Assembly (NCBI GenBank): GCA_019057635.1
Contig: DXJL01000101.1
Location: 1 to 46,569, forward strand
DNA: 46,569 nt
Direction of reading: 5' to 3'
Source: Candidatus Heimdallarchaeota archaeon
GTDB taxonomy: Archaea; Asgardarchaeota; Heimdallarchaeia; Hodarchaeales; Hodarchaeaceae
Both the position numbers and the translations under genes were made by a program. Under the pieces are notes generated by a model. That model searched no databases. It saw only the letters and a list, made by a program, of their open reading frames with translations, and was not told where the DNA came from. Within the stretch, counting starts at the first letter, position 1. Each line of letters starts with the position of its first letter. Shown in pieces: positions 2,850 to 7,948 of this stretch.

Positions 2850-5336
2850 TTAACTTGCGCGAAGGCGAGAGTTAATGGCCAATCTTTCTAGAGTCATCTT
2901 TATTGTATCCTTTACCTTATCATTTTTCTGCATGTAATCTTCTAAGTAGACCTTAACTTCATCAGGGTTATTCAACCCAGCTACAGATACAATATTGCCA
3001 ATCACACCTTCTAAATGCATCGGGTGGAGTTTTTCTAATTCAACTATATTATTCTTGAACCATTCCCACAGATGATCAACTACAAACAAATTTCTCGCTG
3101 AGATCATAATTGGAAAAATCTTGTTTTTACTTGGAACTTTTTCAATGACATAATCAAGTGCATTTAACTGGAGATCCTTATCTTCAAAACTACCAATTGC
3201 GCGAAGAATATTAATCGTTTCAGGTTCAGGTATGTCTGCACTTTCGAGTTTTTTAATTAAAATAGCAAATGATGAGGGAACTTGTGCAGCTCCAATACGC
3301 GTTATACTAGATAATAGATCAGGGTGAATAGATTTACCTTCAAGATATTCATTGAATTTTTGGCGGCCAAATTCGGCGACTCCTTCATCATTGAAAAGAT
3401 AACTTGAAATTAACAGCGAACTACGCAGATTTGTAACTTGGTGCGGTTCATCTTCTTTGGGCTCATAGCCAATATGTTCTAGGACTTTATAGAATGCTTT
3501 AAAGCCAATTGCACTAATCCTTTCTCTTCGTGATTCGACAACTTGAAACGCATGAACTAGATTTGCACTCATAGCAACTAAGGGGAGATAATTGTCTTCT
3601 TCGGTAAAATATTCCATGAAATCCAAATAATCGTCGATAGAATAGTCCTCACTTCTCACAAACGCATAAAGATCATTATGCAAACCATAACGATCTCTTG
3701 GGGATAAAACTTTCTGTTTAACTAATTTTCCAAGCGCATGGAGATTTTCCTTTTCATAAATCACTCGGTAAAAACCTGATTGTTCAAAATTTAATTTGTG
3801 AGCGGTTACGCCATCTGGTAAGGAAATAACCATTGATTTTTCATTAAATACGAATCTTTGTGTATCAATCAATTGAGTTTCTCTGTAAAAGGAAATAGTA
3901 AGAGGGATCATCCACACGTTAGCTGACGAATTGGGGAGGTATGAAAAACGACTTTGCTCGAGAGATAAATGATCTCCAACCTTGTGAACAGTTATTAAGG
4001 GGTATCCTGGTTGGTAAATCCAAGTTTTCATCATTTCGGATATAGGTTCACCTGTTGCCTCTTCTATCCCCTGCCAATATGCACTACTTTCTACACATTC
4101 AAATTTATGATTATTCAAAAAATATTGAATACCTTTCTTAAACTTATCTTCACCTAGGTACCCTTGAATCATTTGTAATACCGCTCCACCTTTTGAATAG
4201 ATAATTGGAGCAGTTGCAGCCGTTATTTTAGTATTTTCGCCCTTTCCTGGAAGCTCAATTGGAAATGTTTCTAATAAGGAGTCCCGTTCAAACGCTGAGT
4301 CAACTTCTCCAGCCAGAAAGCCTTCCCAGATCTGCCATTCAGGATGGTAGTAATCTGCAATAGCGTATCCAAAAAGCGTGGCGAATGATTCATTTAACCA
4401 TATATATTTCCATTCTACAGGACTGACTAAATTCCCAAACCATTGATGAGCTACCTCATGTGCGATTACTTCTGCAATTCTCTCAATTCCCGCTTTTGAT
4501 GTGATTCCAGGATATACAAGAAGAATATTCTCTCGATATGTAATAGCAGCATAATTTTCCATTGCTCCAAAAGCAAAATCAGGTACTGCGATTTGATCCA
4601 ACTTGTCAATGGGGAATTTGATACCAGTATACTTTTCCCCAAATTCGATACTTTTTCTACCGAAATCCAACGCATAGTCAGCAAATTGTGTTTTTCCAGG
4701 AGTAGTGGCAATTCGATATCGTATAGCTTCCGAGGATGCTTCAAGATACTCAAAATCTCCGATACCAAAGAAAAGAAGATAGCTCGACATTTTAGGGGTT
4801 CTTTTAAATTTTATTAGTTTTTTGTCATTTTTTAAGTCAGTTTCCTCTTCAACACGAGTATTAGCTATTCCGGAGAACTTTTTATCAATAATAAATTCGA
4901 TATTGAACGTCGCTTTCATCGAAGGATGATCAAAACAGGGAAAGGCTTGACGAGCGTGATCTTCTTCGAACTGGGTGACTGCAATAAACTTCTCCTCCTC
5001 ATTTTCAATATATTTACTTCGATAAAGTCCCACTAATTTGTCATTAATAAGACCCATATATTCTATCTTAAGAACTAAATCACTTTTAACTTCTGGTAAG
5101 TCTATTGAAAGAATCTGTTTTTTCGGATTGAAACTAAATTGGCATTCAATGAATTTCTTTTCCTTTTTCACTTGACATTTCCAAACTGCAAGTTCATGTG
5201 CATTTAACTCTATTTTATCAATTGGTTCAGTTGCTCTAATACTTATTTCAGTTAAGCCAGAAAAATAAAAATTTTCGAAATTTGGTTCTAATCTTATAGA
5301 ATAATGACTGGGTCTAATTTTGGCCATGGTTTTCAC
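2850..5336 (-). CDS. M1 family aminopeptidase (tricorn-interacting factor F2/F3 or puromycin-sensitive type)
   Basis: GAMEN exopeptidase motif, HEVAHQWFGNLV...WLNESFAT zinc motif, YSKGGAVL, C-terminal ERAP1-like region. Confidence 0.95.
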   Translation of the reverse strand: MKTMAKIRPSHYSIRLEPNFENFYFSGLTEISIRATEPIDKIELNAHELAVWKCQVKKEKKFIECQFSFNPKKQILSIDLPEVKSDLVLKIEYMGLINDKLVGLYRSKYIENEEEKFIAVTQFEEDHARQAFPCFDHPSMKATFNIEFIIDKKFSGIANTRVEEETDLKNDKKLIKFKRTPKMSSYLLFFGIGDFEYLEASSEAIRYRIATTPGKTQFADYALDFGRKSIEFGEKYTGIKFPIDKLDQIAVPDFAFGAMENYAAITYRENILLVYPGITSKAGIERIAEVIAHEVAHQWFGNLVSPVEWKYIWLNESFATLFGYAIADYYHPEWQIWEGFLAGEVDSAFERDSLLETFPIELPGKGENTKITAATAPIIYSKGGAVLQMIQGYLGEDKFKKGIQYFLNNHKFECVESSAYWQGIEEATGEPISEMMKTWIYQPGYPLITVHKVGDHLSLEQSRFSYLPNSSANVWMIPLTISFYRETQLIDTQRFVFNEKSMVISLPDGVTAHKLNFEQSGFYRVIYEKENLHALGKLVKQKVLSPRDRYGLHNDLYAFVRSEDYSIDDYLDFMEYFTEEDNYLPLVAMSANLVHAFQVVESRRERISAIGFKAFYKVLEHIGYEPKEDEPHQVTNLRSSLLISSYLFNDEGVAEFGRQKFNEYLEGKSIHPDLLSSITRIGAAQVPSSFAILIKKLESADIPEPETINILRAIGSFEDKDLQLNALDYVIEKVPSKNKIFPIMISARNLFVVDHLWEWFKNNIVELEKLHPMHLEGVIGNIVSVAGLNNPDEVKVYLEDYMQKNDKVKDTIKMTLERLAINSRLRAS

Positions 5337-5445
5337 TTCCGAGTTATTATCTTGTTATTTGGACTGAATTAAATCAATTCTAAAATTATTGTGTTAATTA
5401 TTCCAGATGTTGAAGATGATATTTTTTTTATCTTAAATTAGTTCT

Positions 5446-5468
5446 ATGACTAAATTTGTCAGACAACT
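5446..5468. repeat. Inverted repeat, tnpB 3' side
   Basis: ATGACTAAATTTGTCAGACAACT, perfect inverted partner of 6833-6855. Confidence 0.95.
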
Positions 5469-5469
5469 A

Positions 5470-5620
5470 GTGAAAAACTAGTTCTGGACAGGATGAGTCA
5501 CACATCCACTATCCGGCAGGAGAGCAATACTAGAAGGTATGCGTTCCTTTGGGACTACTTGGGGAGCAGAGTGAACCCGCTGAAGAATATTACATGCAGC
5601 ATTGTAATCGGCATTTAGTT
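5470..5620 (-). ncRNA. Putative omegaRNA/reRNA scaffold overlapping the tnpB 3' end (5' boundary is a guess)
   Basis: Hairpin GGATAGTGGATG-TGTGACT-CATCCTGTCC (5514-5486) in the last codons, followed by a TTTTTCAC right-end-like motif ending at 5470. The position matches known TnpB guide RNAs. Confidence 0.45.
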
Positions 5621-6731
5621 GAACTCCACACATTTGGCAACAAAAAGATCCCCGTGATCGACGATTTTTTTTAGCCAGATAACCGCACTTACTGCATTGC
5701 TGGGACGTGTACGCTTCGTTGACACGGATGACCGTTATACCAACTAGTTTAGCTTTATACTCAAGCATTTGTACGAATTAAAGAAAAGGAAGCTGGACAA
5801 ATGATTGATTGGTCCGTTTTCCAAGGTTGCAGTGTTGTTTCCACCTCGGATTATAGCCAATAACAAGGGTCTGAATATTCTGCGTTAAACAATACTTAAT
5901 AATTCGGCGAGAGGTTTGATGAAAGAAATCGCGAAGGCGGTTTGTTCGGAGACGGTGGAGGCGTAGCATCCGTCGAGTCAGCAGCTGCTGGTTGCAGGTG
6001 GTCGCTAAGGAGCGATAGTGCGCGAGCTGCTTGTTATACCACTGATTGATGGTCTTTACCACCCCGCCTTTGACGAGTAAGCCGTCTGACGTAGTTACGA
6101 GGTTGGTAAGCCCAAGATCTATCCCCATAGCGCGGGAAGGAGAATCCGCGGAGGGAAAGGCTAGCTCTTGCACTTCATACAGTATTTCGACCATAAAGCG
6201 ATCGTAATAGGGGACCAGACGTGCCCCCACACAGGTGTCGGCCGTTAAGGGAAGCGATCCGACTGGAAAGGTCGGAAACCCGCGTCTCGTGAGATTTTTC
6301 GCAAATAGAATCTGGTTGTTCCGAATTCGGACCCGAGGGCGGGGAAAATTGAGCATATGCAAAGCATCCTTAGGCTTATACCGTGGGATTCGTGGCCGGG
6401 TGTGAAATTTGGTGGGATCCTTTTTCCAAGCTTTTAGGCCGTTAAAAAAGCTCCGCCAAGTTTGTTCTATTTGCCGTAAGACTTGTTGGGGTAAATAACT
6501 ATCCGAAATAGCTTTTAACGTGAGATAGACAGGTTCATGTTTAAGGCGATGATATAACGCAGTATATTGCACCCAGCTTCCTGTTCTGAAGAATTCTTGG
6601 CAGACCTCATAGGTGGCACGATTATACAAATTTTTAGCACAGGTACACAACTCCGTAAAAATGGGCCGAGGTTTCATTTGCATACGGATAGCTAATTGTG
6701 GTTGAGGATGTTTTTTGGTGCGCATTCCCAC
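5478..6731 (-). pseudogene. tnpB: RNA-guided endonuclease TnpB (IS200/IS605, IS1341-like) interrupted by one in-frame TAA at 5778-5780
   Basis: KNLYNRATY N-terminus, RuvC-I GIDLG, LVIGYN, VNEAYTSQQC, zinc finger CSKC...CQMC, RuvC-III NADYNAACNI. The two ORFs share one frame: ...CCT TTT CTT TAA TTC GTA CAA ATG CTT GAG. Confidence 0.92.
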
Positions 6732-6782
6732 TCTTTTCTAGATTTTTCCCTCCTATAAGTTTGTAACCGAGAGAGAGCGGTG

Positions 6783-6810
6783 AAAATGACGAATATGACG
6801 AAAATGAACG
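6783..6810. repeat. Three tandem ~9-bp direct repeats near the element end
   Basis: AAAATGACG AATATGACG AAAATGAACG. Confidence 0.75.
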
Positions 6811-6832
6811 CTTTTTTCTTCGAAAGATTCTA

Positions 6833-6855
6833 AGTTGTCTGACAAATTTAGTCAT
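6833..6855. repeat. Inverted repeat, tnpB 5' side
   Basis: AGTTGTCTGACAAATTTAGTCAT, perfect inverted partner of 5446-5468. Confidence 0.95.
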
Positions 6856-6859
6856 GTTT

Positions 6860-7261
6860 TTAATTTTTTTTAATCATATCTCTACCTCTCATCCATTCTA
6901 TAGTTCTTTCTACTCCTGTTTCAAAATCGACAATTGGTTTAATACCGAGGTTTTCCTTAGCTTTCTGATTCATATAATTACGGCTAGTAGGAATTTTCTT
7001 CAGTGCATTTGGAACATAAGGATAGCCAAAATTCCGCCAGCGATAAAATCTAAGGAGGAATGGCCAAAAAGGTCGTGCAAGTAATAAAGGGAAAGGGGAA
7101 ATGAAAAGAGGTTTTCTTCTGCCAAGTTTTTCCGCAATAGTAGTAAAAATTTGTCGATAAGTCTGAGGTTCATCGGAAGCCAGAATATAGATTTCTCCAA
7201 TTGTTTGCTCAGGATGTAGGATTATTTTAATGAATACTGGAGATTGAAAATCGATTAGTTC
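6860..7261 (-). pseudogene. C-terminal remnant of an NAD-dependent epimerase/dehydratase (extended SDR); no usable start codon, not in ORF track
   Basis: Open frame translates ...HPEQTIGEIYILASDEPQTYRQIFTTIAEKLGRRKP...YMNQKAKENLGIKPIVDFETGVERTIEWMRGRDMIKKN*, a typical extended-SDR C-terminus. The Rossmann and YxxxK parts are absent. Confidence 0.8.
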
Positions 7262-7948
7262 TTAGGTTTCTACGACATCAAGAACCTCTTTCAACGATAT
7301 TGGTAATTTAAAATCGACTACTGAATCCAATTCTGACTCAGAAATTAACTTTAGTTTGTCAGACAGTCGATAATAAATTGGATCTAGAACCTCGGATTTT
7401 CCTCTCGTTTCGGGATATTGAGGATTTATACTACAACATCCGCCAGGTAGGATAGATAAACCATAATACCCCCACTTCTTAGATAAACTTACTACTTCTT
7501 CCTTATTATATCCAATTAACGGCCTAAGCGCTAGAATATTGATCTTAGATGTTACCATTGGCAAATTATCAAGTGTTTGACTTGCTTGTTCCCCCATTAT
7601 TTCACCTGTGATAACGGCCTCAGCTCCTCGCTGATTTGCGAATTGTTGGGCCTTATAAAACATCTGCATTCGGCAAAATAAGCAAGTTTGTTGAATTTCT
7701 CGTCCTTCTAAGCCATTAAGAATTTTTTCTTGTGTTCCACCGTGTGTCATAATTGAGAGACTTAATGGAGTTGAACTATTTCGACTCGCAATCTGATTTG
7801 CCAAGGCCACGACTTTTTCCAAAGTACCTGGGGAATGAAAAGGATAATTATGATAGTGTAGAAGTAATGGTTGGAAACCATTTTTTATCGCAATCTGAGC
7901 TGCTACAGGGCTATCTATACCACCAGATATCAAACATACAGCTTTCAT
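7262..7948 (-). CDS. thiI: ThiI-like PP-loop sulfurtransferase, catalytic domain only (no THUMP)
   Basis: LISGGIDSPVA PP-loop, TCLFCRMQM, ITGEIMGEQASQTLDNL, LRPLIGYNKEEV, GGCC. Likely start is ATG 7948 rather than 8008. Confidence 0.8.
   Translation of the reverse strand: MKAVCLISGGIDSPVAAQIAIKNGFQPLLLHYHNYPFHSPGTLEKVVALANQIASRNSSTPLSLSIMTHGGTQEKILNGLEGREIQQTCLFCRMQMFYKAQQFANQRGAEAVITGEIMGEQASQTLDNLPMVTSKINILALRPLIGYNKEEVVSLSKKWGYYGLSILPGGCCSINPQYPETRGKSEVLDPIYYRLSDKLKLISESELDSVVDFKLPISLKEVLDVVET

Follow-up and report, generated by a model that had tools for sequence, protein, structure and literature searches.

The window examined here, a 46,569-nt stretch of contig DXJL01000101.1 (GCA_019057635.1) from Candidatus Heimdallarchaeota archaeon, contains an inserted element of 1,410 bp (5446..6855, minus strand, including the AT at both ends) that encodes only TnpB. 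At either end of the element lies one arm of a perfect 23-nt inverted repeat, ATGACTAAATTTGTCAGACAACT, which is found at 5446-5468 (plus strand) and 6833-6855 (minus strand), i.e. in exactly two matches within the window, with no matches expected from 100 dinucleotide-preserving shuffles; the repeat finder extends the arms to 34 nt at 85% complementarity. The GC content of the element is about 50% (44-54% across the block), compared to 28-37% in the neighbourhood and 36% genome-wide. A first-pass annotation of this DNA had proposed that the right-end repeat is itself the guide of TnpB and had mentioned, as an alternative, a scaffold that runs through the repeat with the guide beyond it, as in Fanzors. 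The conservation pattern, the empty target sites and the predicted structure favour this alternative: the right-end terminal inverted repeat (5446..5468, minus strand) quite probably serves both as a transposon end, i.e. a half-site for a recombinase, and as the 3′ portion of the scaffold of the guide RNA, the guide being the variable flank just outside.

The tnpB gene and its product

The tnpB coding sequence (5478..6731, on the minus strand, as are all features of the element given below) starts with GTG (6731-6729), ends with TAG (5480-5478) and is a pseudogene, split by a single in-frame TAA (5780-5778) at a position where other copies have a Gln or Lys codon. The GTG start is shared with the intact copy on contig C152; the copies on C72, C133, C35 and C67 start with ATG. 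The two halves of the gene match Pfam OrfB_IS605 (PF01385, 1.5e-20) and Cas12f1-like_TNB (PF07282, 2.7e-22), and the PDB matches of the protein are Cas12f, TnpB and Fanzor2. Together with the element boundaries, the Pfam matches bear out the identification of this region as the right end of a TnpB element. The landmarks recognized there in the first-pass annotation, namely a hairpin (5514-5486), the TAG stop codon, TTTTTCAC ending at 5470 and a second hairpin (5483-5465), are all in place, and TAGTTGTCTGACAAATTTAGTCAT occupies positions 5469-5446.

The protein consists of 417 aa, without an N-terminal extension or a nuclear localisation signal, and its RuvC-I motif is DLG, not DPG. In a HMMER alignment to Cas12f, the canonical RuvC-II Glu is absent, its column being occupied by the Gly of LVIGYN, and an alternative Glu is located six residues ahead of the first CxxC. 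The regular expression for this alternative glutamate (Ealt) given in PMC10711439 matches the TnpB of the window family, and the catalytic set DLG ... E-x6-CxxC ... CxxC-x6-D is complete in proteins P0001-P0003 as well as in the read-through translation of the window gene. Judging by these motifs, TnpB belongs to the IS607-related 'alternative glutamate', or RuvC-II-rearranged, lineage, the source from which Fanzors derive according to the parts of PMC10711439 drawn upon here. The named relatives at 69-95% protein identity come from metagenome-assembled genomes labelled Heimdallarchaeota (B3_Heim) and Hodarchaeota, the next best match being at about 35%; the host is apparently an Asgard archaeon of the Heimdall/Hodarchaeales type. 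The nearest other TnpB relatives (38-40% identity) adjoin serine recombinases with a MerR-type helix-turn-helix (MerR-HTH) domain.

Element boundaries and empty sites

When 75 distinct right ends from five genomes, chosen by the presence of the repeat and the motif of the stop-proximal hairpin (hairpin A, see below), were aligned on their last base, positions −22 to −1 were found to hold 1.1-2.0 bits each, through ...AGTCAT, figures that choosing the ends by their repeat inflates, which detracts from the argument inside the repeat and leaves the drop outside unaffected. In the flank, position +1 is G in 84% and position +2 is A in 53% of the right ends, and from +3 onwards the information content is about 0.1 bit. 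The first-pass annotation had set in advance, as the comparison by which its guide was to be judged, whether conservation drops at 5470 or at 5446. The right ends remain conserved through AGTCAT and the following G and are unrelated beyond, placing the probable scaffold end at 5446 with variable DNA downstream, and the perfect match between the two repeats is peculiar to the pseudogene copy. The contigs of other copies in a read assembly of four metagenome DNA runs leave the window sequence exactly before 5446; no contig of this assembly spans across the element.

Empty sites define the same boundary. In genome G115, the flanks of which are 96% identical to those of the window, position 5445 is joined directly to 6856 and the site reads ...AAAAAC-AT-AGAAGT..., compared to ...AAAAAC[AT-GACT...AGTC-AT]AGAACT... 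in the occupied window site. The site of the intact C72 copy is empty in genome G181 (...CAAAC-AT-GGACTT...), and G115 lacks an insertion at the site of a miniature inverted-repeat transposable element (MITE) derivative on contig C31, the flanks there being 2 nt apart; for another MITE, on C45, only the left flank was matched in G115. Each of the three empty sites has a single AT, the occupied sites have one at either junction, and there is no longer duplication. Thus, exactly 5446-6855 was inserted. The shared AT corresponds to either an IS607-type dinucleotide crossover or a 2-bp duplication, both of which give the same pattern.

The IS605-type end with TCAC at 5470 that had been suggested is not supported by the comparison of copies. 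TCAC or TCAA is found at the window offset in only 5 of the 75 right ends (20 of the 75 within 3 nt), and the empty sites end at 5446. The TCAC of the window copy is a copy-specific accident within the loop and the 3′ arm of a covarying hairpin (hairpin B, see below). An IS605-type right end can be rejected given the absence of a conserved TCAC/TCAA, the lack of a Y1 transposase in the window's genome and the boundary 24 nt further out; Y1 TnpA (PF01797) had 0 matches in that genome, which is 91.6% complete.

Comparison of the two ends shows a clear asymmetry. Left ends start with ATGATC in 39 of 65 cases and with ATGACT in 4 of 65, whereas 71 of 76 right ends start with ATGACT; A occupies the centre position in 71 of 76 right ends, compared to C, T, G and A in 32, 17, 9 and 7 left ends, respectively. 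Right ends are more constrained than left ends at positions 5, 6 and 16 and thus are under an extra constraint that has no counterpart in the left end and fits a constraint on RNA. Among 59 candidate left/right pairs (some of them, those with at least 8 mismatches, spurious), the outer 20 nt show 0 mismatches only in the window copy and 2-12 mismatches in the other 58; in intact copies, 3-5 of the 20 positions differ, typically positions 5, 6 and 16. The left-end terminal inverted repeat of the window (6833..6855) is unusual in being of the right-end sequence type (ATGACT...A...). The outer approximately 35 nt of this left end (6833-6868) cannot be aligned with the left ends of other full-length copies, and its BLAST matches to these copies begin at element position 35-37. 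These features suggest end replacement or aberrant transposition in the window copy.

A predicted RNA scaffold with covarying hairpins

The structure of the right end was analyzed in an alignment of 42 of 46 right ends, leaving out three members of a long-insert subfamily (L007, L017 and L106) and a false match (L089:246-378). The 5′ limit of the block common to full-length copies and MITEs is a conserved box, CAAGTAGTCCC (5551..5561), with invariant or nearly invariant alignment columns, which is the probable start of the predicted scaffold. Downstream of this box lies hairpin C (5524..5542, GCAUAC ... GUAUUGC), in which 9 of the 9 pairs show double changes across the 42 copies. It is followed by hairpin A (5486..5514, GGAUA-GU-GGAUG[UGUGACU]CAUCC-UGUCC), which overlaps the last 11 tnpB codons: its inner stem, GGAUG (5507-5503) with CAUCC (5495-5491), is 98.6% paired, with compensatory changes in two pairs, around the loop UGUGACU (5502-5496), and GGAUA (5514-5510) could form an outer stem with UGUCC (5490-5486). 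Hairpin B (5465..5483, AACTAGT/ACTAGTT) contains the stop codon and TTTTTCAC (5477-5470), and its base is formed by the innermost 3 nt of the repeat. At least seven different stem sequences occur in hairpin B with pairing retained, among them ACTAGT/ACTAGT, ACGCAG/CTGCGT, ACTATTT/AAATAGT, ACTCT/AGAGT and ACTTTG/CAAAGT, the register of the inner pairs, which covariance-model realignment left unfixed, being judged from listings. The hairpins covary across copies, and the first-pass annotation was right to regard them as RNA-type.

Two further pairings would engage the repeat itself. In a possible extended helix around hairpin B (5457..5490), the repeat core UCU-GACA (5463-5457) is the partner of UGUC(C)AGA (5490-5483); this helix is 96.9% paired in the 42 copies, is present in the minimum-energy fold of the window copy and is rebuilt with other letters in subfamily 2 (UGUCG-U-GAC / GUC-CGACA). 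At the very end, AGUCAU (5446..5451), the last two bases of which are the shared AT, could be the 3′ strand of a pseudoknot whose other strand is the hairpin-A loop GUGACU (5501-5496); the two are paired in 100% of the 42 copies and in 445 of 450 cells across the 75 copies, a pairing that both RNAalifold and the single-sequence fold select. Some of these data speak against the structure as drawn. The repeat-core helix and the outer stem of hairpin A are mutually exclusive, and the data do not separate them; the pseudoknot shows no compensatory double change, its 13 variant copies comprising nine with wobble pairs only and four with a broken pairing, and about 7 of the 12 possible transitions in it would be tolerated by chance. 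The pseudoknot is, accordingly, a candidate that is compatible with the data, not a proven feature. About 18 of the 23 repeat bases can pair inside the predicted RNA, which would make the repeat ill-suited to serve as a guide.

The proposed structure as a whole has 87.6-88.0% of cells paired, compared to 31-47% when the partners are slid, and its covariation score was reached by none of the 500 shuffles. The right-end RNA (5571-5446) folds at −32.5 kcal/mol (z-score −2.26), with 4 of 200 shuffles as stable, and against the family model the window right end reaches 136 bits, a score like that of active-looking copies. A search of Rfam gave 0 matches at E <= 1 in 4800-7400, excluding RAGATH-18 or another curated Rfam family in this region.

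The same elements could be conceived as acting at the DNA level only, the repeat and the hairpins being transposase or recombinase binding sites or a relic end, with no functional guide RNA made from this copy or by the family. The TnpB of the window is a pseudogene, the repeat core reads as a palindrome (TTTGTC-N-GACAAA) such as dimeric proteins bind, and the lack of compensatory changes in the pseudoknot, as well as of RNA among the listed sequencing runs (see below), fits this explanation. However, the strong covariation of hairpins B and C is not required of DNA binding sites, non-coding MITEs retain the entire approximately 116-nt scaffold block, constraint is stronger on the right end than on the left, TnpB genes that are intact and have the full catalytic motif still exist, and the window right end scores no lower than active-looking copies. 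On these grounds, we consider a role confined to DNA unlikely.

The predicted guide and TAM

With the scaffold running through the repeat, the predicted guide is AGAACTAATTTAAGATAAAA (5426..5445), the first non-conserved DNA past the element, its length and exact start being extrapolated; by analogy with IS607, where the first flank base belongs to the scaffold, the guide may start at 5444. The predicted guide matches the empty allele in G115 at 19 of 20 positions, behind ...AAAAACAT. In the left flank, position −2 (before C-AT) is T in only 2 of 65 copies, compared to 32% T genome-wide (binomial 1e-8, the copies not being independent), whereas the right end has T at the corresponding base in 97% of copies. 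From this pattern we infer a transposon-adjacent motif (TAM) composed of the left flank and the core, roughly VCAT(R).

Several precedents are consistent with this assignment. In the parts of PMC10711439 consulted, IS607 elements insert via matching dinucleotides and their scaffold includes a fixed right-flank base, Fanzor scaffolds include the inverted repeat and the target-site duplication, and a pseudoknot links the last bases of the scaffold to an upstream segment; PMC11832414, in part, likewise places a Fanzor2/TnpB pseudoknot at nucleotides −4 to 0, adjoining the guide. In mobile OMEGA systems, the DNA coding for the guide lies immediately beyond the end of the transposon, and standalone guide RNAs act in trans (PMC10691335, in part).

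Two points weigh against a guide in the flank, namely that 24 sequencing runs are listed and none is on record as RNA, and that the 19-20 nt of repeat left after hairpin B are of guide-like length. Both would suit the reading in which the scaffold ends at TTTTTCAC (5470) and the following 20-24 nt of repeat form a fixed guide against the opposite repeat and all copies, as do the identity of the two repeats in the window copy, the likeness of TCAC to the right ends of the IS605 family and the unmapped RNA 3′ end. The repeat does match the opposite end (6833-6855) and other copies, as had been noted, there being 58 matches in the window's genome. However, TCAC/TCAA is rare at this offset and lies inside a covarying hairpin, the genome has no Y1 transposase, the empty sites put the end at 5446, not 5470, and most of the repeat can pair within the RNA. 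Furthermore, intact copies have 3-5 mismatches in 20 positions between their two repeats, the centre base, close to what would be the TAM-proximal end, among them, and a nuclease directed against at least 50 chromosomal sites beside intact TnpB genes would be self-destructive. Thus, a fixed guide of this kind is very improbable.

A variant in which the repeat-derived 3′ segment is likewise a fixed guide, and TnpB acts as an RNA-guided excisase of its own element and of the MITEs, appears extremely unlikely. TnpB cuts at the TAM-distal end of its target; therefore, with a 20-nt repeat guide, the cut would fall exactly at the outer boundary of each end, and excision of this kind, if real, would explain the transposase-free copies.

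The model with the guide in the flank, in which RNA production, the RNA 3′ end, the pseudoknot, the TAM and the type of recombinase are what we infer, would operate as follows. The right end (5446-5571) would be transcribed as a right-end element RNA (reRNA), or omega-RNA, scaffold with three covarying hairpins, in which the repeat core pairs back to UGUC(C)AGA, and AGUCAU with the hairpin-A loop forms a guide-adjacent pseudoknot. The guide, a stretch of host DNA of approximately 16-20 nt that begins at 5445/5444, reaches to about 5426 and is different in every copy, would direct TnpB to the unoccupied allele, and with VCAT(R) as the TAM, the empty site would be cut and the right junction of the occupied site (TCAT) spared. 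Because the TnpB of the window is broken, the protein would have to be supplied by intact copies elsewhere in the genome.

Mobility

The left repeat is located approximately 130-145 nt ahead of the tnpB start in all full-length copies seen, and no copy encodes a transposase. On an excised circle, the two repeats would meet in a palindrome with AT at its centre, i.e. the layout of a crossover site for a dimeric recombinase, which, being encoded in no copy seen, must then act in trans. The target flanks resemble the joined ends beyond AT, with C at −1 in 74% of left flanks and G at +1 in 86% and A at +2 in 55% of right flanks, a similarity that favours site-to-site recombination. On the strength of these sequence features, we favour mobility via a trans-acting serine recombinase.

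Other observations count against this preference. No transposase with these ends was found, and the 17 serine-recombinase loci that 8 of the genus's 22 genomes contain all lack the repeat; G181 has 20 right ends and no detected serine recombinase (this genome is 84% complete), and the presence of serine-recombinase genes does not track the presence of the repeat in the genus. In addition, according to PMC10691335, TnpBs linked to serine recombinases have asymmetric ends, and inverted repeats are found in each of the six DDE-linked groups. For the transposition step, a DDE enzyme that creates a 2-bp duplication of AT is, therefore, to be taken seriously as an alternative: the guide would remain in the flank, and a trans-acting cut-and-paste DDE transposase would move the element. 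Inverted-repeat ends with a 2-bp duplication and the genomic distribution of serine recombinases agree with such an enzyme, but the target resembles the joined ends beyond AT, the TnpB lineage and its nearest relatives are of the IS607 type, and no DDE gene with these ends was detected among the open reading frames (ORFs) adjoining copies, DDE families as such not having been searched. Taken together, movement by a DDE transposase is possible, and less than likely.

A complete IS607-type element, with a MerR-HTH serine recombinase and TnpB, is present in the same genome at C54:5735-7900 (L080; also C163 and C82:48097-48182). Its TnpB is 38% identical to that of the window and also has LVIGYN replacing the canonical glutamate. 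As the mobiliser of the window family, this element was rejected because its ends differ, ...TTTGTGATAACC. Its right end, ...ACATTTGATAACATTTGTGATAACC, contains ATTTGT..GAYAAC motifs loosely like the repeat core of the window element. A second serine-recombinase-linked relative (40% identity, metagenome locus L147) also has ends that differ from those of the window element. Contig C158, with two odd repeat matches, showed no transposase-like ORF pattern, its ORFs not having been scanned against Pfam.

Copies, derivatives and genomic setting

The window's genome (3.19 Mb, 214 contigs) contains 58 matches to the repeat at no more than four mismatches and has about 50 element termini, those of MITEs included. 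Seven long TnpB copies, with 69-82% protein identity, were identified, of which those on C72, C133, C152 and C35 have open frames, whereas the window copy and those on C179 and C67 are broken. Many of the right ends belong to MITE-like derivatives of approximately 360 bp; such MITEs, for example those at C45:9647-10004, C31:68512-68871 and C203:979-1338, retain about 100 nt from the left and about 120 nt from the right end. A survey of 201 genomes sampled from the phylum yielded the repeat motif in five, all from the genus of the window (5 of 22 genomes of the genus), with 0 occurrences of the reversed control pattern. Metagenome relatives down to 55% identity still bear the repeats.

The MITEs also retain a 55-nt piece from the middle of tnpB (codons ...NLVTTSDGLLVKGG; window 6064-6164, minus strand) with the palindrome GTAACT...AGTTAC. 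Metagenome contig depth peaks at this piece and at the right end, at about 200-240 and about 370, compared to a background of about 5-10. Within a second subfamily, the right ends (C35:1288, C118:48092) have a longer insert between hairpin A and the repeat, and the left ends are near-identical over at least 70 nt in three places (C13:2431, C133:128340 and C174:6931), which suggests recent activity, as far as sequence identity can indicate it.

In the window, the element occupies a 110-nt spacer that separates the stop codon of an upstream gene (...MIKKN*) from the start of a gene for an M1 aminopeptidase (2850-5336), and the element and these two genes are all on the minus strand; the spacer flanks of the element are 5336-5445 and 6856-6862. 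Read-through out of the element would enter the M1 aminopeptidase gene, and the predicted guide overlaps the upstream region of that gene.

Discussion

The window family represents a known kind of system, not a new mechanism. A description of the family was not found in a limited search of the literature on TnpB in Asgard archaea, and the supplementary end tables of PMC10691335 and PMC10711439 may list it; Cas1-linked TnpBs have been described in Asgard archaea, with a different arrangement (PMC10691335, in part).

The closest parallel is the TnpB and right-end RNA of IS607 (ISXfa1; Yoon et al. 2023, PMC10711439, in part), with which the window family shares the displacement of Glu to six residues ahead of the zinc finger, insertion at a dinucleotide common to element and target without a longer duplication and a nearly fixed first flank base, as well as, by prediction, a scaffold that ends in a guide-adjacent pseudoknot with the guide in the flank. 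In contrast to ISXfa1, the core of the window element is AT, not GG, its ends are 23-nt inverted repeats, where elements linked to serine recombinases are reported to have asymmetric ones, its host is an archaeon, no copy of the family carries tnpA, and RuvC-I is DLG, compared to DPG in the 'pro-Fanzor' set.

With the eukaryotic and viral inverted-repeat transposons that encode Fanzor1 and Fanzor2, the element would share a scaffold running through the terminal repeat and the duplicated bases, with the guide beyond, and the catalytic site is rearranged in the same way. The host is, however, prokaryotic, the protein has 417 aa and DLG, not DPG, and membership is not claimed. The similarity to TnpB of IS200/IS605 (ISDra2) would be that of an RNA-guided nuclease with a right-end guide RNA that overlaps the 3′ end of tnpB and, presumably, homing to the empty site. 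Unlike IS200/IS605, the window family lacks Y1, a conserved TCAC/TCAA and the canonical glutamate, AT is duplicated, and the ends are inverted repeats, not subterminal hairpins.

IS630 duplicates TA, whereas the duplication in the window is AT and the relatives of the protein are linked to serine recombinases, which distinguishes the family from DDE-linked TnpBs. These, in particular the IS630-linked DDE-6 branch (Altae-Tran et al. 2023, PMC10691335, in part), nevertheless resemble it in the location of TnpB between inverted repeats, no more than 250 bp from an end, and DDE-linked solo TnpBs are mobilised in trans (PMC10691335, in part). The approximately 360-bp derivatives, in turn, resemble standalone omega-RNAs and OMEGA-derived MITEs in keeping both ends together with the whole scaffold block and in having a different flank for each copy, so that each could supply a new guide in trans; they differ in also keeping the 55-nt mid-tnpB piece.

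The family is young in its host, with about 50% GC compared to 36% and a presence in 5 of the 22 genomes of the genus, and therefore says nothing direct about the origin of eukaryotes. For the reading of other loci, an inverted repeat of guide length that follows the final hairpin of a TnpB element would not be a guide when the element is bounded by inverted repeats. The window family is a prokaryotic TnpB family that combines a Fanzor-type rearranged active site, inverted-repeat ends and a scaffold that apparently runs through the repeat, an arrangement so far described for eukaryotic Fanzor transposons and found here in Asgard archaea. Such an arrangement in a prokaryote could serve as a natural test case for how the boundary of a guide RNA adapts to changed transposition machinery, and the family offers compact 417-aa nucleases together with a scaffold that is well defined, natural guides in large number and three empty target sites on record.

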